NCBI RefSeq assembly: GCF_017302985.1
Contig: NZ_JAFIMU010000011.1
Span: 1 to 61,685, forward strand
Origin: Corallococcus macrosporus
GTDB lineage: Bacteria > Myxococcota > Myxococcia > Myxococcales > Myxococcaceae
Direction: 5' to 3'
DNA length: 61,685 bases
The stretch's first letter is position 1; the number at the start of each line of letters is the position of its first letter. Shown here in pieces: positions 6,243 through 36,903 of the stretch. The notes beneath the pieces are model-generated. The model was not told where the DNA came from. It saw nothing but the letters and a program-made list of their open reading frames with translations, and ran no database searches. Position numbers and translations under genes: made by a program.

Positions 6243-7187
6243 TTGCAACGGCTGGGGGGCATCATGGACTGGTCGTTGACGGCATCCCTGCTCGCCGAGC
6301 GGGACACGCGCCCCATCGTGGTGATGGACCGGCGCGGGCGCATCGAGCTGGCGAACGGCGCTTTCACGTCGCTCTTGTGCCGGCCCCGTGAGGAATTGCT
6401 GGGGCGGCGATGGACGGAGGTCTGCTCGCCGCGCGAGCACGGCCGCGAGGTGGGACGCGCGCTGCGCGCCATCTTCACCAGCGCCGAGACCCGGCTGGAG
6501 ACGGAGGTGCTCACCCGCGACGGCGAGCGGCTGTCGGTGGAGCTGGACGTGGCCGCCGTGGGCCAGCCGCCGCTGCGGCTGGTGGCCATCATCACGCGAG
6601 CGTCGCCACGCCTCTCCGTCCCGGAGCGCGCCGCCAGCGTGGAGCCGGCCCACGCCTCTGGACCGCACCAGGACCTGAACTACGAAATCTCCACCGAGCT
6701 GGCGTCGTTCGGGACGCTCAAGGCGGTGTGGACCTCCGGGCACGCGCAGCAGGAGGAGATGGTGGGCCGGCCCTGCTTCGGCGCCTTCGCCCACCGGGAC
6801 GCGCCCTGCCTGGACTGCCCGCTGACGGCGACGTCCCCCACGTCCTGGCCCCACACCATCGTGCGGCAGGCCCCCGCGCACGGCGACGGCTACGAGGTCG
6901 TCACCGCCACGCCCACCGGCGCCGGCACCGCGCGCGTCAGCGTGCACACCATCGGAGACGCCACGCTCAGCGGCCTCTTCGAGGCGAAGGTGCGGCGCAT
7001 GGCGAGCGCGGCGCGGCTGTCGGAGCGGGAAGGCGATGTGTTGCGATATCTCGCGCTCGGCCGCTCGCCCGCGGACATCTCGACCGTGTTAGGGATTACC
7101 GAGCGCACCGTAAAATTCCATCAGGCGAACCTGCTCCGGAAGCTGGGAGCGGAGACGCGGTATGACCTGCTCCGCCTGTTCTTCTGA
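6243..7187 (+). CDS. PAS domain / LuxR-family HTH transcriptional regulator
   Basis: N-terminal PAS-like region ('IVVMDRRGRIELANGAFTSLL...'). C-terminal 'EREGDVLRYLALGRSPADISTVLGITERTVKFHQANLLRKLG' is a LuxR/GerE HTH. True start may be the ATG at 6264 (MDWSL). Confidence 0.75.
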   Translation: MQRLGGIMDWSLTASLLAERDTRPIVVMDRRGRIELANGAFTSLLCRPREELLGRRWTEVCSPREHGREVGRALRAIFTSAETRLETEVLTRDGERLSVELDVAAVGQPPLRLVAIITRASPRLSVPERAASVEPAHASGPHQDLNYEISTELASFGTLKAVWTSGHAQQEEMVGRPCFGAFAHRDAPCLDCPLTATSPTSWPHTIVRQAPAHGDGYEVVTATPTGAGTARVSVHTIGDATLSGLFEAKVRRMASAARLSEREGDVLRYLALGRSPADISTVLGITERTVKFHQANLLRKLGAETRYDLLRLFF

Positions 7188-7391: not shown

Positions 7392-9530
7392 ATGCGGGAG
7401 TTCCTCCTCGAGTCCCGCGAGCATGTGCAGAGCATCGAGGCGACGGTGCTGGAGCTGGAGGCGCAGCCGGGCTCGCAGCCGCTGCTGGCGCAGCTGTTCC
7501 GCAGCCTGCACACCGTGAAGGGCACCTGCGGCTTCCTGGGCTTCACCCGCCTGGAAGCGCTGATGCACGCCGCCGAGGAGCTGCTCGGGCTGGCGCGCGA
7601 CCGGCGCCTGGTGCTGGACCGCGAGCGCGTGTCCACGCTGCTGGCGCTGGCGGACGCGGCGCGCGCGGCGCTGGAGCACATCGAGGCCACCGGGCTGGAG
7701 CCCGCGGTGGACCACTCCGCGCTGCTCGCGCGCATGGCGGGCGCGGCGACCCCGAGCGCGCCGGTCGTGGTCTCCGAGCCCCTGACGCCTCCGGGCGCCC
7801 TGCCCTGGCGCGGCGCCGCCACCGGCGTGGACGCCAAGCTGCGCGTGGACGTGGCGCTGCTGGACCGGCTGATGAACCTGATGGGGGAGCTGGTGCTGGC
7901 GCGCAACCGCATCCTCCAGTGCGCCGCCTCGCCCACGCCGGGCGCGGACCTGATGACCGCGTCGCAGCGGCTGGACGTCATCACCACGCAGGTGCAGCAG
8001 GTGGTGATGAAGACGCGGCTCCAGCCGGTGGGCCAGGTGTGGAACCGCTTCCCCCGGCTGGTGCGCGAGCTGGCGCACGGGTGCGGCAAGCAGGTGCGGC
8101 TGCAGCTCCAGGGTGCGGACACGGAGCTGGACAAGACGCTGGTGGAGGCGCTGCATGATCCGCTCACCCACCTGCTGCGCAACGCCGTGGACCACGGCGT
8201 GGAGACGCCCGAGCAACGCCGCGAAGCGGGCAAGCCGCCCGTGGGGTGCGTGACGTTGAGCGCGTCGCACGAGGGCGGGCTCGTGCACCTGGGCATGTCC
8301 GACGACGGCGCGGGCATCGACGTGCAGCGCGTGCGGCAGGTCGCGGTGCAGCGGGGCCTGCTCACGGCCGACCAGGCGGCGCGGCTTCCGGACGCGGACG
8401 CGATGATGCTCATCTTCATGCCGGGCTTCAGCACCGCGGAGCGCGTCACGTCGCTGTCCGGCCGGGGTGTGGGCATGGACGTGGTGCGCACGCAGGTGGA
8501 GCGCATTGGCGGCACCGTGGAGGTGCACAGCCGGCCCGGTCAGGGCACGACGTTCACCCTGAAGATTCCCCTCACGCTGGCCATCATCCCGGCGCTGCTC
8601 GTGACGTGCCGGGGCGACCGCTACGCGCTGCCGCAGGCCTCCCTGCGGGAGGTGGTGTGGCTGGATCCGGCCCAGGCCCGCAGGGACATCACCCGCATCC
8701 AGGGCGCGTGCGTGCTCCGGCTGCGCGGAGAGCTGCTGCCGCTGGTGGTGCTGGCCTCCGAGCTGGGCGTGGGTCCCGCGACGCCGGACCTGGACGAGGG
8801 CGCCACCCTCGTCGTGTTGCAGGCCGGGGAGCGCACCTTCGGGCTGTGGGTGGACGCCATCCACGACACGGAGGAGATCGTCGTCAAGCCGCTGTGGAAG
8901 CACCTGAAGGGACTGGCCTGCTACGCGGGCGCGACGGTGCTGGGAGATGGGCGCGTGGCGCTCATCCTGGATGCCATGGGGCTGGGCCGCCGCGTGGGCA
9001 CCGTCGCCGAGACGCCGGCCCAGGTCGTCGTCCCCGAGGTCGTCCCGGAGGCGCCTGCTCCCGAGGACGCGCGCGAGCGGGTGCTGCTGTGCCGCACCGG
9101 CGCGGAGGGCCGGGTGGCCATCCCGCTGTCCCGCGTGGCCCGGCTGGAAGAGCTGCCCGCGTCGGACGTGGAGCGGCTGAGCGGAGGCATGGAGATGGCG
9201 CGCTATCACGGCCAGTTGCTGCCGCTGGTGCGCGTGGCCTCCGTGCTGGAGGCGAGGCCCGGCGCGACGGAGCGGCTCACGCAGGGGCTCCAGGTCGCGT
9301 TCGGCGAGTCGCTGTCCGTCGTCGTCGCCACGCACGCGGACACGCGCGTGGGGCTGGTGGTGGACGCCATCCTCGACGTCGCGGAGGTGGAGGTTTCACT
9401 CCAGCGCGAGACGCGCCGCCCGGGCGTGCTGGGGTCCATGGTGGTGCAGAGCCGGGCCACCGAGTTCCTGGACGTGGAGGGCACCGTGCGCGCCGTGCAC
9501 CCGGAGCTGCTGACAGGAGGTGCGCCGTGA
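7392..9530 (+). CDS. cheA: Chemotaxis histidine kinase CheA (Hpt, dimerization, HATPase_c, two CheW-like domains; no receiver)
   Basis: Hpt motif '[17 protein letters not shown]'; HATPase '[12 protein letters not shown]...[10 protein letters not shown]...GRGVGMDVV'; two CheW-like segments at the C-terminus. In-frame ATG at 7392 within ORF 7230..9530. Stop TGA at 9528-9530 overlaps the cheW GTG. Confidence 0.9.
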
Positions 9531-10015
9531 GCGCGTCCCGACAGATGTGCTCGTTCCTGGTGGGCGACCACCTGTTCGGCCTGGACATCGAACGCGTGCA
9601 GGAAATCCTCATGCCGCCTCCGCTCACGCGCGTGCCCGGCGCGCCCCCGGAGGTCGCGGGGCTGCTCAACCTGCGCGGGCAGATCGTCCCCGCCATCGAC
9701 CTGCGCCGCCGCCTGGACCTGCCCGACGGCAATGCCCCCTCGGACGCGCCCCACGTCGTCCTGCGCGGCGACGAGGGCGCGGTGAGCCTTCGCGTGGATG
9801 CCATTGGCGACATCCTCCCCTTCGAGCAGTCGGACCTGGCGCCCCTGCCGGACAACCTGCGCGGTTCACTGCGCTCGCTGCTCCTGGGCGTCCATGCGCT
9901 GCCGGACCGGCTGCTGCTCGTGTTGTCCGCGGACGCGGTGGTGAACGGGCTCGCGCCCGCGACCAGCGCCTCCGCCTCCCCTTCCTTCCCCGTGCTTCCC
10001 CAGGAGTCCCGCTGA
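9527..10015 (+). CDS. cheW: CheW coupling protein
   Basis: CheW fold '[54 protein letters not shown]'. GTG at 9527 overlaps the cheA stop (GTGA); alternative ATG at 9545. Stop TGA at 10013-10015 overlaps the next ATG (ATGA). Confidence 0.85.
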
Positions 10016-12075
10016 TGGCCCGCTCGACCGCGCCCAACTTGAAAACCACCCTCTTCCAGCGCCTGGGCGGCAAGGCCCCGCTGACGGCCGCCGTGCAGAA
10101 GCTCTACGCGCGGGTGATGACGGACGCGCTGCTCAAGCCCTTCTTCCGCCGCGCGGACCTGGTGCAGCTCCAGCGCCAGATGGTCGCGTTCCTCACCCAG
10201 CACCTGGGCGGCCCGGCCGTCTATCGCGGCCCGTCGATGGGCGAGGTGCACGCGCGGATGGAGCTGCGTCCGCACCACTTCGAGCGCGTCGCCGAACACC
10301 TGGCCACCGTGCTGGATGAGCTGGACGTGCCGGGCCCCGTCGCCCGCGAGCTGCTGTCGGCCGTGGGGACGCCGAGCGAGGCGAAGATCCGCCGGCCCGC
10401 CGCGAAGCGCACTCCGGCGCGTGCCCCTCGCACCGAGGGACGCCGGGTCGCCGCGGTGTCCGCGCCCGCGGCCCGTTCCTCCCGCCGCCGCGCGGCCACG
10501 CCGCTCTCGGGCGCCTTCAATGAAACGCTGCTCAACGCGGCGCGGGTCAACCTGTTCGTCCTGGACGCGGACCTGGGCGTCGTCTTCATCAACGCGGCCG
10601 CCACGGAGGCCATCGAGCGCATCAGCGACGGCGCGGGGGACGCGGCGGGCAACGACTTCCTCGGCCACTTCGAGCACCTGCTGCGGCTGGAGGAGGACCG
10701 GCTGAGCACGCCCTCGGGGCTGCCGTACGAGACGACCTTCGCGGTGGGCCCCACGCTGCTCAAGGCCCACGTCGACGGCATCGAGGGCCGTGGCGGAGCG
10801 CTCAGCGGCTACGTGGTGACGTGGACGGACATCACGGATCAGCAGCGCGTGGACACGGAGATGGCGCGCCTGCGGGCCATGCTGGAGAACGCGCCCACCT
10901 GCGTGATGGCGGCCGACAAGGACCTGAAGATCGTCTACCTGAACCCCGCCTCGCGCCGGCTGCTCCAGCGGGTGGAGAAGCACCTGCCCGTCAGCGCGGA
11001 CCGGGTGCTGGGGGCCACCATCGACATCTTCCACCGCGACTCGGCGTACCAGCGGAAGATCCTGGCCAACGACAAGAACCTGCCGGTGCGCGCGAACATC
11101 CCCATCGGGCCGGAGGTCGCGGACCTGCTGGTGACGGCGGTGTACGACGGCCAGGGCCGATACCTGGGCCCCATGGTGACGTGGGAGCTCATCACGGAGA
11201 AGCTCGCCGTGCAGAAGCGCGAGCAGGACCTGGACAGCACGCTGCGCGGCATCTTCCAGGAGGTGACGCAGCACTCGCAGACGCTCGCGGCATCGTCGCA
11301 GGAGCTGTCCAGCGTCAGCCAGCAGATGGTGAGCAACGCGCAGGAGACCGCGGCGCAGGCCACCCAGGTCTCCGCCGGCGCAGAGCAGGTCAGCCGCAAC
11401 GTGCAGAGCGTCGCGTCCGGCATGGAGGAGGTCAACGCGAACATCCGAGAGGTGGCGCGCAACGCCAGCGCCGCGGCCAAGGTCGCGGCGTCCGCCGTCA
11501 AGCTGGCGGATACGACCTCCGGCCTCGTCGGCAAGCTGGGCACCAGCAGCCAGGACATCGGCAAGGTCATCAAGGTCATCACCTCCATCGCGCAGCAGAC
11601 GAACCTGCTCGCGCTCAACGCGACCATCGAGGCGGCGCGCGCGGGCGAGGCGGGCCGGGGCTTCGCGGTGGTGGCCAACGAGGTGAAGGAACTGGCGCGC
11701 GAGACGGCCCGCGCCACGGAGGACATCGGTCAGCGGATCGGCAGCATCCAGGGCGACACCGAGGAGGTCGTCAACGCCATCCTGGAGATCGGCGCCACCA
11801 TCAGCCGCATCAACGAACTGCAGACGTCCATCGCCTCGTCGGTCGAAGAGCAGACGGCGACCGCGGGCGAGATCCTGCGCAACGTGGGCGAGGCAGCCAA
11901 GGGCAGCCAGCAAATCTCCGAGAACATGGCCGCCGTGGCGGAGGCCGCGCGCAGCACCACCGAGGGCGCGGGCAGCACGCAGCGCTCCGCGGTGGAGCTG
12001 GCGCACATGGCGCAGTCGCTGCAACGGCTGGTCGTGCAGTTGGACACCACGGACAAGCAGACGCGGGCGAAGTAG
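10015..12075 (+). CDS. Soluble methyl-accepting chemotaxis protein with N-terminal truncated haemoglobin (group I trHb) domain + 2 PAS + MCP signalling domain
   Basis: N-terminus '[32 protein letters not shown]...[27 protein letters not shown]' aligns to trHbN, with a B10 Tyr and a proximal His. PAS-like segments start '[25 protein letters not shown]' and '[24 protein letters not shown]'. MCP core '[34 protein letters not shown]'. No TM helices seen. Confidence 0.85.
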
Positions 12076-13992: not shown

Positions 13993-15057
13993 ATGAACGC
14001 CATCCGGGTCCTGGTCGTCGACGACGCGGCCGTGGTGCGGCGACAGGTGTCGCAGCTCCTGGGCTCGGCGCCCGGCCTGGAGGTCGTCGCCACCGCGGCC
14101 AACGGCCGCATCGCCCTGGCGAAGGTGGAGCAGTTCCAGCCGGACGTGGTGCTGCTGGACCTGGAGATGCCGGAGCTGGACGGGCTGGAGACGCTGAAGC
14201 TCTTGCGCCAGCGCGCCCCGGAGCTGCCCGTGGTGATGTTCAGCGCGCTCACCGAACGCGCCGGCATGCTGACCCTGGAGGCGCTCGCGCTGGGGGCACG
14301 TGACTACGTGACGAAGCCCACGTCCGCGGGCGGGATGAACGTCACCGTGGAGTCCGTGCGCGACGAATTGGTGCGCAAGCTCAGGGCGTTCGACGTGCGT
14401 CCCCCGTCCCCCACGATGGCGCCGTTCCCGGCGACGCGCGCACTTCAGCCCCGGCCTCGGGTGCCCGCGCGGGTGGAGGCCATCGTCATCGGCGCGTCCA
14501 CCGGAGGCCCGGGCGCGCTGGTGCGCGTGGTGTCCGCGCTGCCAGCGGACCTGCCGGTGCCGGTGCTCATCGTGCAGCACATGCCTCCCCTCTTCACGCG
14601 GCTGCTCGCGGAGCGGTTGCAGGGCGTGAGCCCGCTCTCCGTTCGAGAGGCCGTGACGGGTGCGTCCGTGCAGCCTGGCGCGGTGTGGGTCGCCCCGGGG
14701 GACTTCCACCTCGCCGTGTATCGCGACGCGGGGGGCGTGCGGCTGCTCACGCACCAGGGGCCCACGGAGAACGCGTGCCGTCCGGCGGTGGACCTGCTCT
14801 TCCGCTCGGCGGCGGAGGTTTACGGCGCGGGCGTGCTGGCGGTGGTGCTCACCGGCATGGGCCAGGACGGGCTGCGCGGCTGCCGCAAGGTGAGCGAAGC
14901 GGGCGGTCAAGTGGTGGTGCAGGACCAGGCCAGCTGTGTCATCGGCAGCATGCCGGGCGCGGTGGAGCAGGCGGGGCTCGCGGATGCGGTGGTGCCCCTG
15001 GACGCCCTGGCCCTGGAGCTGGTGCGGCGCGTGGATCCGCGCGGACGGAGGACCTGA
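13993..15057 (+). CDS. cheB: Chemotaxis response regulator protein-glutamate methylesterase CheB (REC + CheB_methylest)
   Basis: REC 'IRVLVVDDAAVVRR...VVLLDLEMPELDG'; catalytic 'IVIGASTGGPGAL...VLIVQHMPPLFTR...VVLTGMGQDG'. An in-frame GTG at 13987 is an alternative start. Confidence 0.9.
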   Translation: MNAIRVLVVDDAAVVRRQVSQLLGSAPGLEVVATAANGRIALAKVEQFQPDVVLLDLEMPELDGLETLKLLRQRAPELPVVMFSALTERAGMLTLEALALGARDYVTKPTSAGGMNVTVESVRDELVRKLRAFDVRPPSPTMAPFPATRALQPRPRVPARVEAIVIGASTGGPGALVRVVSALPADLPVPVLIVQHMPPLFTRLLAERLQGVSPLSVREAVTGASVQPGAVWVAPGDFHLAVYRDAGGVRLLTHQGPTENACRPAVDLLFRSAAEVYGAGVLAVVLTGMGQDGLRGCRKVSEAGGQVVVQDQASCVIGSMPGAVEQAGLADAVVPLDALALELVRRVDPRGRRT

Positions 15058-15059
15058 TC

Positions 15060-15953
15060 ATGTCCCTGCTTCCCGACGACTTCGCGTATCTGCGCAAGCG
15101 CGTGCTGCGCCGCTCCGGGCTCGTGCTGGAGCCCGACACGCACGCGCTGGTGGAGACGCGGCTCACGCCGCTCATGCGCGAGGAGCATCTGCCGGACATC
15201 TCCGCCCTGGTCGCGCGGCTTCGCTCACAGCCGGAGAGCAGCCCGCTCCACCAGCGGCTGGCGGAGGCGCTGGCCAACCACGAGACGGCCTTCTTCCGCG
15301 ACGCGCCGGTGTTCGACGCCCTGCGCACCACGGTCCTGCCCGCCCTGCTGGCGAAGCGCTCCCGCACGCGGACGCTGCGCATCTGGTGCGCGGCGTGCGC
15401 CTACGGCCAGGAGCCCTACAGCGTGGCGATGACGCTGGCGGAGGCCGGGCTGCTCATCACCGGCTGGACGGTGCGCATCCTCGCCACGGACTTCTCCACC
15501 CGCGCGCTCATGCGCGCCAGCGAGGCCCGCTACGACGCGCAGGAGATCCACCGGGGCCTGTCACCCAAGCTGCGCCAGCGCTACTTCCATCAGGACCGCG
15601 ACAAATGGCGGCTGAACGAACAGGTGCGCAGGCCGGTGGAGTTCCGGCCGCTCAACCTGATGGACGACTTCCCACCGGAAGCGCCCGTGGACCTCGTCTT
15701 CCTTCGCAACGTGATGATCTACTGGGACGCGACCACCCGGCACGCGGTGCTCGCGCGCGTGCGGCGGATGATCCACGCGGAGGGCTACCTGGTGCTGGGC
15801 GCCGCGGAGGCCTCTCCCCTGGGCGAGGACGGCTTCACGCGGCACCTGATTGGACAGACCAGTTGGTACCGCCCCACGCCCGCGTCGCAGACCAGCGCGG
15901 GCGCCCCCATGCGGGATGCGCCGCGCCCTCCCCGCTCCGGCGCTACACCTTGA
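15060..15953 (+). CDS. cheR: Chemotaxis protein methyltransferase CheR
   Basis: 'TAFFRDAPVFDAL...RIWCAACAYGQEPYSVAMTL...VFLRNVMIYWD' are CheR SAM-methyltransferase motifs. ATG lies 3 nt after the cheB stop. Confidence 0.9.
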   Translation: MSLLPDDFAYLRKRVLRRSGLVLEPDTHALVETRLTPLMREEHLPDISALVARLRSQPESSPLHQRLAEALANHETAFFRDAPVFDALRTTVLPALLAKRSRTRTLRIWCAACAYGQEPYSVAMTLAEAGLLITGWTVRILATDFSTRALMRASEARYDAQEIHRGLSPKLRQRYFHQDRDKWRLNEQVRRPVEFRPLNLMDDFPPEAPVDLVFLRNVMIYWDATTRHAVLARVRRMIHAEGYLVLGAAEASPLGEDGFTRHLIGQTSWYRPTPASQTSAGAPMRDAPRPPRSGATP

Positions 15954-19900: not shown

Positions 19901-20788
19901 CTACGCGAGCAGCGTGGCGTCCATCACGGTGAGGGCCACCCCGCCCACGCGGGCCCGCTCGATGTGGCCCGGCCGCCCGGTGACCTGGATGTCGATGCGG
20001 CCCGGCTTGCCCAGCGTGTCGCCCTGCTCGACGCGGCTGGCCACCGTGCCGCCCTGCTCGGGCAGCCGGAGGCTCCCATGCTCGGCCAGGTACGCCGCCA
20101 GCGGCCCCGCGGCGGAGCCCGTCACGGGGTCCTCCAGGATGCCGAACCCCGGGACGAAGTAGCGCGCCTGGGCCGCGCTCCCCTCCTCCTTCGCTTCGCG
20201 GGTGAAGAGGTAGACGCCGCGCAAGCCGTGCGGCATCAGCAGCGCGTTCATCGCCGCGCCTCGCGGCGTCAGCGCCTCCAGGTCCGCGAGCCGCCGCAGC
20301 GGCACCACCAGCCGGTGGCCCTGGCGGATCACCGGCAGCGTCGGGTCCACCTGCGCGGCCGTCCCGCCAAGCGTGGCCATCAGCGCCTCCATGGCCACGG
20401 GGTTGGGCTCAGCGGGGGGCTGAGGCGTGGTGATCCACACGCGCGTCCCTTGCCCGCCCCGGGGCTCCAGCTCGATGCCGAAGGTGCCACCGGGGCACTC
20501 CAGCGTGTACGTCCCCGGGCACTTCAGCAGCCCCTTCTCCGCGAGCAGGTGGAAGGTGGCCACCGTGGCGTGGCCGCAGAAGGGAATCTCATCCACGGGC
20601 GTGAAGTAGCGCAGGCGCACCGTGGCGTCGCCGGGCCGGGACAGGACGAAGGCGGTCTCCGACGCGCTGACGGCCGCGGCGGTCCGCTGCATCGTCGGGA
20701 CGTCCAGCGCCGTGGCGTCGAGCACCACGCCCGCGCGGTTTCCTGCACCGGCGGTGCGGGTGAAGGCATCGATGATGTGGACCTGCAT
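19901..20788 (-). CDS. PhzF-family isomerase
   Basis: 'MQVHIIDAFTRTAGAGNRAGVV' and the PhzF/DAP-epimerase-like fold along the full length. Confidence 0.8.
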   Translation of the reverse strand: MQVHIIDAFTRTAGAGNRAGVVLDATALDVPTMQRTAAAVSASETAFVLSRPGDATVRLRYFTPVDEIPFCGHATVATFHLLAEKGLLKCPGTYTLECPGGTFGIELEPRGGQGTRVWITTPQPPAEPNPVAMEALMATLGGTAAQVDPTLPVIRQGHRLVVPLRRLADLEALTPRGAAMNALLMPHGLRGVYLFTREAKEEGSAAQARYFVPGFGILEDPVTGSAAGPLAAYLAEHGSLRLPEQGGTVASRVEQGDTLGKPGRIDIQVTGRPGHIERARVGGVALTVMDATLLA

Positions 20789-20932
20789 GGGCGGACTCCG
20801 GCCAGGGGAAGGGGCTGGGAAACGGCGCAGGCATGCTCCGCTCCCCCGCTGGCGTCAAGCGCTGGACCGACGCACACGGACGCCGCACAACGGGGTTGAA
20901 CAGGAGGGCGCGAGCAGGCACAGCGATGGCGC

Positions 20933-35890: not shown

Positions 35891-36811
35891 ATGCCCCCGC
35901 GCAAGCTCCAGCGACACCTGGTCTGGCTCGAGTCCTTCACCGCCGCCGTGGAGGCCGGCAGCATCGACGCCGCCGCGGAGCACCTGGGCGTCGCTCGCTC
36001 CGTCGTGAGCGAGCACATCCGCGCCCTGGAGGAAGTGCTCGCGGATGGCGCCGCCCTGCTGGAGCGGGGGCCGGGCCGGCGCCTCCAGTTGTCCGCGCGC
36101 GGCGAGCGCCTCTACGCGGGCACCCAGACGCCGCTGCACCAACTGGACGTGAAGCGGCTGATGGACCTGGCCCGCGTGGAGCCCACCCTGCGCCTGGGCC
36201 TCAACCCCACCCTCTCCATGTCGCTGCTGGGCGGCATCGCGCATGACGCCGCCGCCACCGACCTCAAGCTGGTGGTGGGCTTCGGCGGCTCGCATGAGCT
36301 CATGCGGCAGGTGCAGACGCGGCAGCAGGACCTGGTGCTCGACTTCACCCCCCTGCCCCCGCATGAGGGCGTGGACACCGAGTCCCTGCTGCGCATGTCC
36401 TTCGTCGTCATCGCCGGCCCTGACTCCGCGCTCGCGAAGGCGCACGCGTCCCGCCGCTCCCTGGACGTGAAGGACCTCGACGGCCAGCGCTTCGTGGACT
36501 GGCTGCGGGACGACCCCTACGGCGGCGCCAACAGCGCACGCTTCGCCGCCCACGGCGTCTCCGTCACGGAGGTCGGCCGCGTGGAGAGCTTCCTCCACCT
36601 CTATGAGCTGCTGCGCGCCTACAAGGCCTGCACCATCGCCCCCGACGTGCGCCCCACCCAGCCCTTCCCGCCCGACCTCCACGTCTGGCCCCTGCGCGAA
36701 CAGGAGCCCCAGGTCGTGGAAGTGGTGGCCCTGTGGCCCTCCGGCGGCCTCAGCCCCGGCGGCCAGAGCATCCTTGACGGGCTGCGTCGTCGGCTGAACA
36801 AGCGACGATAA
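35891..36811 (+). CDS. LysR-family transcriptional regulator
   Basis: N-terminal HTH 'LESFTAAVEAGSIDAAAEHLGVARSVVSEHIRALEEVL' plus a LysR substrate-binding domain. Confidence 0.8.
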   Translation: MPPRKLQRHLVWLESFTAAVEAGSIDAAAEHLGVARSVVSEHIRALEEVLADGAALLERGPGRRLQLSARGERLYAGTQTPLHQLDVKRLMDLARVEPTLRLGLNPTLSMSLLGGIAHDAAATDLKLVVGFGGSHELMRQVQTRQQDLVLDFTPLPPHEGVDTESLLRMSFVVIAGPDSALAKAHASRRSLDVKDLDGQRFVDWLRDDPYGGANSARFAAHGVSVTEVGRVESFLHLYELLRAYKACTIAPDVRPTQPFPPDLHVWPLREQEPQVVEVVALWPSGGLSPGGQSILDGLRRRLNKRR

Positions 36812-36903
36812 TCCGACGAAGACGTCGATTTCTGCCGGATTTCCGTCTTCCAGTGCGATGCGTATTCTTCAGGAGTCCTGTTTCTCTTGAAGGAGCCGCC
36901 CCG

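Follow-up and report, generated by a model that had tools for sequence, protein, structure and literature searches.

A 61,685-nucleotide stretch of Corallococcus macrosporus DNA (contig NZ_JAFIMU010000011.1, positions 1 to 61,685; hereafter the window) encodes a soluble chemoreceptor of 686 residues that combines a truncated haemoglobin (trHb), assigned to group I, with a predicted Aer2-type haem-PAS domain. From the N terminus, the receptor consists of the trHb domain (residues 10–118), a disordered linker of about 45 residues, two PAS domains (PAS1 and PAS2), and the kinase-control module of a methyl-accepting chemotaxis protein (MCP). The interpretation we favour, with confidence slightly better than even, is that of an Aer2-like receptor, in which the haem of PAS2 would sense O2 and signal straight to the kinase-control helix. 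The globin, on its tether, would be an accessory second haem module, PAS1 a degenerate modulator, and CheB and CheR would adapt the receptor.

The receptor gene runs from ATG 10015 to a stop codon at 12073–12075. The start codon overlaps the stop codon of cheW (TGATG at 10013–10017), and an AGGAG sequence lies 9–13 nt upstream of it. The product is 100% identical to a C. macrosporus protein of the same length (686 residues) at NCBI, which is annotated just as 'PAS domain-containing protein'. A longer open reading frame from GTG 9520 overlaps cheW in another frame and was rejected as an artefact of high G+C content (about 70% in the window). The N-terminal sequence MAR is common to 17 of 17 full-length homologues in the Corallococcus clade, which also speaks against a start at GTG 9520. 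Pfam detects MCPsignal (PF00015) at residues 483–645 (E = 7e-33), the MCP output expected of globin-coupled sensors, and a PAS/PAS_8 match at about residues 284–327. An AlphaFold2 model of residues 1–410, built with 40 homologues as input, has a mean predicted local distance difference test score (pLDDT) of 82.5 and contains two PAS folds at about 166–275 and 283–398. The highest Kyte–Doolittle value for a 19-residue segment anywhere in the receptor is 1.64. This segment lies on a β-strand of PAS1 that contains two Asp residues; the receptor therefore has no transmembrane helix and is soluble, and a membrane receptor is ruled out.

The globin matches Bac_globin (PF01152) at residues 12–108 with an E-value of 4.4e-18 and a score of 66 bits against a cutoff of 21. 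A phmmer search of residues 1–138 against the PDB ranks group-I trHbs first, with E-values spanning 3e-19 to 2e-12. These include the Tetrahymena protein 3aq5 (3e-19), Chlamydomonas THB1 (3e-18), Synechocystis GlbN (5e-16), and Mycobacterium tuberculosis HbN (6e-16). Recognised group-II proteins (HbO, YjbI, and the Thermobifida and Geobacillus globins) score 3e-10 to 1e-5. The alignment with 3aq5 covers 106 residues without gaps and places H79 opposite His73 of that structure. Topological positions were fixed by the mutant names of deposited structures (Y25F, Q46E, and Q50E; TyrB10Phe and GlnE11Val for HbN). The key residues are G18G19, Y31 (B10), F44 (CD1), L52 (E7), M56 (E11), G65G66P67, H79 (F8), and V92 (G8). 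V92 lies opposite Val94 (G8) of HbN; a Trp at G8 is the mark of group II and III globins. On these sequence comparisons the globin belongs to group I, not to group II or III.

The modelled globin is well defined, with pLDDT above 90 for residues 10–118. Foldseek superimposes it on HbN with a root mean square deviation (rmsd) of 1.1 Å over 107 residues (TMt 0.80) and on the Tetrahymena and Paramecium trHbs with a TMt of 0.86, in agreement with a 2-on-2 fold. Neither Protoglobin (PF11563) nor Globin (PF00042) matches the receptor in Pfam. A 3-on-3 globin and a group-II trHb are thus ruled out by Pfam, the PDB scores, and the 2-on-2 fold. Compared with HbN, GlbN, and the Tetrahymena and Paramecium proteins, the domain shows 31–38% identity and an rmsd of 1.1–1.3 Å. 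It shares both Gly-Gly motifs, Tyr B10, Phe CD1, His F8, and Val G8 with these group-I trHbs, and Leu E7 with HbN. It differs from them in its fusion to a signalling protein and in the Met that the Corallococcus clade has for Gln at E11.

Conservation of the haem pocket was counted over 67 trHb domains from related receptors (66 receptors, one with two tandem trHbs). G18G19, F44, and H79 are present in all 67 domains, Y31 in 66, and L52 in 62. G65G66 is kept in 66 of the 67, and the G65G66P67 columns in 65–66. Position E11 is Gln in 44 domains; Met occurs there in 18 of 18 Corallococcus-clade sequences and nowhere else among the 67. In the favoured model, the trHb would bind a second haem through His79.

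A preliminary description of this DNA, made from the letters alone, had anticipated much of the above. The profile search found the expected family and a globin fold, the best PDB matches are N-type, position G8 of the globin is Val and not Trp, and the contrast drawn with the 3-on-3 sensor globins of HemAT type agrees with the Pfam results and the 2-on-2 fold. All the motifs that it listed are present (LGG at 17–19, LYARV at 30–34, PFF at 42–44, HLGGP at 63–67, VHARM at 78–82, and HHF at 87–89). The position-by-position likeness that it claimed to group-I trHbs holds for Tyr B10 and the proximal His, but fails at distal position E11, which is Met and not the usual Gln of trHbN.

PAS2 resembles the haem-PAS domains of Aer2 in both sequence and predicted structure. 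Its best PDB sequence matches include Pseudomonas aeruginosa Aer2 (3vol, E = 3e-15; 4hi4, 2e-14) and Vibrio cholerae Aer2 (6ceq, 3e-13). The modelled fold can be superimposed on 6ceq with a deviation of 1.5 Å and a TM score of 0.83; with 3vol and 4hi4 included, the values are 1.5–2.5 Å and 0.79–0.83 (Foldseek). The haem-pocket residues lie in three motifs: IDIFH(R/K) with the Eη-His H340, ADLLV with the Hβ-Leu L371, and MVTW with the Iβ-Trp W390. H340, L371, and W390 align with the P. aeruginosa Aer2 residues in 3vol and 4hi4. Seven residues (D337, F339, H340, Q346, L371, W390, and T394) are invariant across 40 homologues. Experiments on the Aer2 proteins of P. aeruginosa, V. cholerae, and Vibrio vulnificus have assigned functions to the equivalent residues: they coordinate haem b, gate its pocket, form a hydrogen bond with O2, and pass on the signal (PMC10107281). 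PAS2 is accordingly classed as a predicted Aer2-type haem-binding PAS domain.

PAS1 retains the Iβ-Trp (W270) and a full DxT motif (D272-I-T274). In the Corallococcus clade, Glu220 occupies the column of the haem-ligand His, with His residues at −2 and +1, whereas PAS1 of all other lineages has the complete IDIFHKNP motif. The Corallococcus PAS1 has lost its canonical haem ligand and probably plays a structural or modulatory role. The receptor thus probably carries one haem in the trHb and one in PAS2 of each monomer, whereas most of its relatives are predicted to carry three. Among the haem-PAS domains of V. vulnificus Aer2, only the one nearest to the output is required for signalling, and those upstream just modulate it (PMC10107281).

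The globin and PAS2 are connected to the rest of the receptor in different ways. The last helix of the globin ends at about residue 118 and is followed by a linker in which residues 123–165 have pLDDT below 50 and 92% of the residues are disorder-promoting. The equivalent linker in 22 homologues varies from 23 to 100 residues, is not conserved in sequence, and is disordered in every lineage. Strand 383–392 of PAS2, in contrast, passes directly into helix 394–409 and on into the kinase-control coiled coil in the AlphaFold2 model. The hairpin tip of the coiled coil lies at about E545, and its two arms of 147 and 141 residues correspond to 21 and 20 heptads. By their length, the arms would fit a 40-heptad class, longer than the 36-heptad module of Aer2; PDB alignments of the module need insertions or deletions against both the 36-heptad Tsr and the 44-heptad TM1143. 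Q429/E430 and E611/E612, in the motifs ASSQELSSV and SSVEEQTAT, are candidate methylation sites plausible for CheR and CheB. The C-terminal sequence DKQTRAK contains no xWxxF pentapeptide.

The overall picture agrees with the trHb-PAS-PAS-MCP order proposed in the preliminary description, as judged by Pfam, the PDB sequence search, and the model, and with its statements that the protein lacks a transmembrane helix and belongs with the adjoining Che genes; the gene lies inside a packed operon that begins with cheA-cheW and ends with cheB-cheR. Two PAS domains are present where it saw two PAS-like segments, but PAS2 is of the specific Aer2 type and not a generic one. The preliminary interpretation is partly supported: the globin is a trHb with a conserved haem pocket, but a role as primary sensor is not secured. 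Some 45 residues of low model confidence (pLDDT below 50) tether the globin, whereas PAS2 leads straight into the helix of the kinase-control module, and to name the globin 'the sensor domain' therefore exceeds the evidence.

In the mechanism that we favour, PAS2 would bind haem b via His340. O2, or possibly CO or NO, would be stabilised at this haem by Trp390 and would displace Leu371. The signal would then travel via Thr394 and the helix leaving the last PAS strand to the kinase-control coiled coil, without passing through a HAMP domain. This coiled coil and the co-translated CheW would set the activity of CheA, and CheR and CheB would adapt the receptor at the QE and EE sites. Given its flexible linker, the globin is most likely accessory and not the primary transmitter. 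It might provide a second gas or redox input by docking on the PAS dimer, or it might shape which ligand reaches the PAS haem. Consistent with an accessory role, the globin need not be covalently attached, as a separate trHb gene adjoins the MCP gene at three other loci (L007, L038, and L001).

A closely related system was described earlier. Sharma, Parales and Singer (BMC Genomics 2018; PMC6194562) reported that the Corallococcus coralloides DSM 2259 receptor Cc_4972 (WP_014397685.1) contains Bac_globin, PAS, and MCPsignal domains and no transmembrane helix. Its Cc-5 cluster, CheA-CheW-MCP-ABC1-ABM-CheB-CheR, was put forward in silico as an aerotaxis system, and the possibility that the system is 'rudimentary' was raised. 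The window cluster is plainly the orthologue of Cc-5: the genus, the Pfam architecture, the order of the seven genes, and the absence of CheY all agree. The fusion is therefore not newly recognised. The 2018 paper works at the level of Pfam; its count of PAS domains is one, which it treats mostly through the FAD-binding Aer of Escherichia coli. The word 'truncated' does not occur in the paper, and the globin is never called truncated or group I. The paper reports seven such proteins among 8,075 genomes, places ABC1 and ABM in no other cluster, and finds the system in one myxobacterium only. Each of these points (the globin class, the number and type of PAS domains, the seven proteins, ABC1 and ABM, and the single myxobacterium) is revised here. 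In a 2026 review of aerotaxis, the Cc-5 receptor still figures as no more than an in-silico prediction.

According to a 2020 globin review, the chimeric T globins of bacteria are all of the T2/O and T3/P types (PMC7475203). The fusion of a trHbN to an MCP goes beyond the chimeras in that review, although Hade et al. 2017, on multidomain trHbs, may have listed it already. New here are the assignment of the globin to group I, the Met at E11, a PAS1 without the ligand His, the spread over about ten phyla, the likely ABC1 partner, and the split forms. The genuinely new points among them are the conserved partner and the split and fused evolutionary intermediates.

The fusion is widely distributed. 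Among the best 120 database matches to the receptor, 66 have a full N-terminal trHb and about 54 have no globin. The globin is N-terminal in all fused receptors, and one MCP (P0019, 1171 residues) has two trHb domains in tandem. In GTDB species genomes, the fusion is present at about 26 of 82 loci (80 from the GTDB scan and two from contig look-ups), and 56 of the 82 lack the globin. The taxa with the fusion include Acidobacteriota, Gemmatimonadota, Nitrospirota, Verrucomicrobiota, Bdellovibrionota, Actinomycetota, Rhodothermaeota, Acidimicrobiales, Myxococcota (Corallococcus and a metagenome-assembled genome of Polyangiaceae), and metagenome-assembled genomes of Alpha-, Gamma-, and 'Delta'-proteobacteria. 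The trHb-PAS-MCP architecture thus spans about ten phyla and is not limited to seven proteins.

An exhaustive HMMER search in which the globin was the only query returned 634 cluster representatives at E ≤ 1e-10. The architectures among long single-copy matches include trHb-PAS-MCP, trHb-PAS-PAS-HAMP-MCP, trHb-HAMP-GAF-MCP (P0199), and a trHb-MCP without PAS (P0219). Truncated globins were thus recruited into chemosensory proteins repeatedly. In addition, a metagenomic representative of 578 residues (P0225) is a CheA-like fragment with a trHb inserted between its HATPase_c and CheW-like domains, which would be a second way to wire a trHb into a chemosensory array. Other top matches, including P0121 (1882 residues), are multi-unit trHbs with up to 13 tandem globin units. 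HAMP-like segments are inserted in four homologues of the receptor (P0099, P0103, P0105, and P0107). Three Corallococcus entries for the receptor are shorter (P0035, 404 residues; P0049, 496; P0023, 572). One of these consists of PAS2 and the MCP module, another is missing the greater part of the globin, and the third has no PAS. They may be artefacts of contig edges or gene calling, or real truncations.

The genes around the receptor are also conserved. In other genomes the receptor gene nearly always follows cheA-cheW and precedes cheB-cheR. An ABC1 gene lies 38–204 bp downstream of the receptor at 9 of 21 assessable loci with the trHb and at 1 of 48 without it (Fisher p = 4e-5), counts that ignore phylogenetic kinship and so make weak statistics. 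The trHb loci with a downstream ABC1 gene come from Corallococcus, a deltaproteobacterial metagenome-assembled genome, Acidobacteriota, Gemmatimonadota, and Verrucomicrobiota. The ABC1 proteins next to trHb-bearing receptors are 37–46% identical to that of the window, and those next to globin-less receptors mostly 24–27%. This co-occurrence contradicts the 2018 statement that ABC1 is found in no other such cluster, and ABC1 is likely a conserved functional partner of the globin-bearing receptors. The metagenomic contig of P0019 has the order CheA-CheW-(trHb-trHb-PAS-MCP)-ABC1-ABM-CheY-CheB-CheR and thus includes a CheY. ABM is kept only in Corallococcus, at locus L005, and on the P0019 contig. 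A REC-GerE regulator gene lies near a related metagenomic Che cluster.

Several loci carry the globin and the receptor as separate genes. At an Acidobacteriota locus (L007, 10423–10436), a stop codon parts a 133-residue trHb gene from an MCP gene with two predicted haem-PAS domains, whose start lies 7–13 bp after the trHb stop behind an AGGAG. A stand-alone trHb gene follows a globin-less receptor with three PAS domains at L038 and precedes a fused receptor at L001. In 9 of 24 fusions outside Corallococcus, the linker contains an in-frame ATG with a Shine–Dalgarno sequence of at least 5 nt placed 5–9 nt upstream (among them L002, L006, L008, L009, L011, L018, L020, and L068); of the remaining in-frame ATGs in those stretches, roughly 50 in number, about 2 are so placed. 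The split gene pairs and the linker starts suggest that the fusion derived from an adjacent gene pair, and an internal start may yield a globin-less isoform in those lineages. An internal start in the window's own linker is unsupported, as it contains no ATG and only a weak GTG at V148 with GAGGGA 15 nt upstream. A DUF420 membrane-protein gene (L001, 7989–8384; L002, 863–1396; L007, 9600–9968) directly precedes the trHb or trHb-MCP gene in Acidobacteriota and is part of the same cluster in a Nitrospirales genome; no DUF420 gene was found near the window's Che cluster.

The seven-gene cluster cheA-cheW-mcp-abc1-abm-cheB-cheR of the window is tightly packed, with intergenic gaps of 0–22 bp. Table 1 lists its genes and the domains of the receptor. 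The start of cheA was placed at MREFLL, where the Hpt match begins. A scan of the operon for promoters gave no promoter-like site, and a scan for terminators gave one terminator-like match, fewer than shuffled sequences predict. The ABC1 kinase contains KxGQ, VAVK, HADPHPGN, and DFG motifs and matches its ABC1/COQ8 relatives in the PDB with E-values of 5e-30 to 7e-15. The ABM protein bears a weak likeness (about 1e-4) to the haem-degrading MhuD and HmoB. A role as a haem oxygenase of the IsdG/MhuD type is unsupported: in the alignment Asn7 is kept, but Trp66 is replaced by Phe and His75 by Glu. A trHb-ABM monooxygenase chimera is known from Streptomyces avermitilis (Bonamore et al. 2007, cited in PMC7475203). 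It likewise associates a trHb with ABM, but as a fusion, whereas here the two are gene neighbours, with ABM two genes downstream in the same operon and kept only in the closest relatives.

The seven genes occur in the same order in Corallococcus exercitus (L003) and Corallococcus praedator (L004), with 82–98% identity. The full-length receptor gene and this order are found in at least 12 named Corallococcus species with 80–94% identity. Upstream of cheA lies a gene for a one-component regulator of the PAS-LuxR type, which has no receiver domain. It is kept directly 5' of cheA in C. exercitus (95% identity), possibly belongs to the Che cluster, and goes unmentioned in the available text of the 2018 cluster description (PMC6194562).

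Table 1. Genes of the Che cluster and domains of the receptor in the window
Feature	Position	Strand	Basis
PAS-LuxR (GerE) one-component regulator	6243..7187	+	Pfam GerE 2.9e-15, PAS_4 1.8e-10
cheA, histidine kinase (Hpt, dimerisation, HATPase_c, CheW-like)	7392..9530	+	Pfam
cheW, coupling protein	9527..10015	+	Pfam CheW 2.2e-29
Receptor gene (soluble MCP, 686 residues)	10015..12075	+	ORF translation, Pfam, database identity, hydropathy
Group-I (N-type) trHb domain, residues 10–118	10042..10368	+	Pfam, PDB phmmer, alignment, AlphaFold2, Foldseek
Disordered linker, Ala/Arg/Pro-rich, residues 119–165	10369..10509	+	AlphaFold2 pLDDT, composition
PAS1, Aer2-like fold, residues 166–275	10510..10839	+	Alignment, AlphaFold2
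PAS2, predicted Aer2-type haem-PAS, residues 283–398	10861..11208	+	PDB search, alignment, AlphaFold2, Foldseek
MCP kinase-control module, residues 399–686	11209..12072	+	Pfam, PDB alignment, heptad count
ABC1/UbiB-family atypical kinase, 509 residues	12094..13623	+	Pfam ABC1 4e-47
ABM-family monooxygenase, 111 residues	13646..13981	+	Pfam ABM 3e-14
cheB, methylesterase with receiver domain	13993..15057	+	Pfam
cheR, methyltransferase	15060..15953	+	–

The receptor shares features with two known types of O2 chemoreceptor. The Aer2 proteins of P. aeruginosa, V. cholerae, and V. vulnificus are also soluble MCPs, contain one to three haem-b PAS domains, and are encoded after cheA-cheW. The Eη-His ligand, the Iβ-Trp, the Hβ-Leu, and the extended PAS fold of Aer2 are all present in PAS2 of the window receptor. 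That the PAS domain nearest to the output is the signalling one was shown for Aer2, and the same may hold here by analogy. However, the receptor lacks a HAMP domain on either side of its PAS domains, the Asp of the DxT motif in PAS2, and the C-terminal pentapeptide; it has an N-terminal trHb, and its arms of 21 and 20 heptads would fit a longer module than the 36-heptad one of Aer2. HemAT and the other globin-coupled sensors of the S family resemble the receptor in having an N-terminal haem globin on a soluble MCP, with a proposed function in aerotaxis. Their globin is a Protoglobin (PF11563) connected by a continuous helix, whereas that of the window receptor is a 2-on-2 globin of the T family (PF01152), with a disordered linker and then the two PAS domains between it and the MCP module.

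A number of observations weigh against an Aer2-like mechanism as proposed here. Pfam finds no HAMP domain in the receptor, and the lack of a di-HAMP unit makes the route of transmission unlike that of every characterised Aer2. PAS2 ends in W390-E-L-I-T394, which keeps the Thr of the DxT relay but has Leu for its Asp. The receptor reaches 188.6 bits with the NCBIfam Aer2 model NF041847, whose cutoff is 1200. On these three grounds, full membership of the Aer2 family is ruled out. In the Corallococcus globin, Met at E11 and Leu at E7, as in HbN, leave Tyr B10 as the sole polar distal residue, and its O2 stabilisation or ligation state may therefore differ. As the trHb-MCP without PAS shows, a receptor can have a trHb for its only input, and the globin may signal more directly than proposed. 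Pfam detects no CheY encoded in the window's Che cluster, and the organism is gliding and without flagella (2026 aerotaxis review); the output of the receptor is especially uncertain for these two reasons. The limits of the ABC1 synteny statistics given above count here too. Support for the mechanism is computational throughout. The analysis shows the identities of the domains, the conserved residues, the disordered linker, the packing of the operon, and the synteny; we infer haem binding, the ligand, the direction of signalling, and the cellular output.

The reading of the preliminary description, in which the trHb is the primary gas sensor and its haem-ligand signal is relayed through the PAS domains to the kinase-control module, appears rather unlikely to us. 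The strict conservation of the haem pocket in about 66 fused receptors would fit it, as would the N-terminal position of the globin in all of them, the usual place for an input domain, and the existence of receptors in which the trHb is the only recognisable input (P0219 and P0199). Against this stands the connection of the globin, which is a disordered, non-conserved linker of 23–100 residues and not a continuous helix such as couples the HemAT globin to its coiled coil. Moreover, the globin is a separate polypeptide at L007 and L038, PAS2 has, by prediction, its own full haem pocket for O2 sensing, and close relatives without the globin are common, both among the best 120 matches and among the 82 loci. 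M. tuberculosis HbN, one of the closest solved relatives of the globin (1.1 Å), acts as an NO dioxygenase, and its Leu E7 and Tyr B10 are both present here. The globin could be an enzyme-like accessory, an NO dioxygenase or O2 buffer beside the PAS haem that clears NO, which would lock the PAS domain, or sets the local O2 level, with ABC1 and ABM supporting the redox chemistry. A flexible tether and split genes suit a module that acts via a diffusible ligand, the ABC1 neighbour is specific to globin-bearing receptors, and ABM is also kept in the closer relatives (L005 and the P0019 contig); the Streptomyces trHb-ABM fusion (reference 60 in PMC7475203) is a further parallel. Yet Gln E11 matters for HbN chemistry and is replaced by Met in Corallococcus, the operon has no evident gene for a reductase partner, ABM lacks the catalytic Trp and His of MhuD, and the link between ABC1 and globin has no experimental precedent. 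We regard this enzymatic role as unlikely.

The N-terminal modules of the Corallococcus receptor might also be decaying relics of a horizontally acquired system, which would leave a single-PAS Aer2-like sensor at most, or a non-functional cluster. The losses specific to Corallococcus, namely Gln to Met at E11, the PAS1 ligand His to Glu220, and CheY, which is present in the related metagenomic cluster of the same gene order, are in line with decay. So are the shorter variants annotated in some strains and the 'rudimentary' possibility raised by Sharma et al. (PMC6194562). Decay is nevertheless very improbable in view of the full-length gene and seven-gene order maintained across the Corallococcus species, the haem-pocket residues that are intact except at E11, and the reading frames, which are intact and translationally coupled. 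The Aer2-like interpretation, with an accessory globin, is the one we retain.

A broader proposal is tentative and, in our judgement, doubtful. In it, trHbs would be a second, unrecognised class of globin-coupled chemosensory inputs found in about ten phyla. A separate trHb gene beside an Aer2-like receptor would have become fused to it, many lineages would keep an internal ribosome-binding site and start codon for a globin-less isoform, and the system would work with a dedicated ABC1/UbiB kinase. If so, the receptor would integrate signals from two haems, such as O2 sensed by the PAS domain and NO or the redox state sensed by the globin. ABC1 would connect chemosensing with the quinone pool or have the basic linker as its target.

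Other genes in the window were noted in passing. An 853-residue protein with Major Vault Protein domains is encoded at 41446–44007 on the minus strand (MVP_shoulder, 4e-45, and Vault repeat families); bacterial homologues of this protein have been reported (bioRxiv 10.1101/872010). A LysM protein at 38605–40215 on the minus strand has a VgrG3-like C-terminal domain (3.5e-53) and probably acts on peptidoglycan as an effector or hydrolase. The region downstream of the Che cluster also contains a PhzF-family protein gene (19901–20854, minus strand), a fragment-like match to cytochrome P450 (22910–24427, plus strand), and a gene for a biopterin-dependent hydroxylase-like protein (36778–38499, plus strand). 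No connection of these three genes to the receptor is evident.

O2 sensing by chemoreceptors is currently understood via three inputs, the FAD-PAS of Aer, the haem-PAS of Aer2, and the 3-on-3 sensor globin of HemAT. To these, a receptor in which a 2-on-2 globin joins an Aer2-type haem-PAS would add a fourth, and it would be a natural test of combining two haem domains of different chemistry in one signalling protein. The architecture extends beyond one genus and usually comes with its own CheA, CheW, CheB, and CheR, and often with an ABC1 kinase. As the idea of aerotaxis is already in print as a prediction, the value of the present analysis lies in a sharper, testable model and not in a discovery. 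For myxobacteria, the receptor is the only candidate for a direct O2 sensor tied to a Che pathway.

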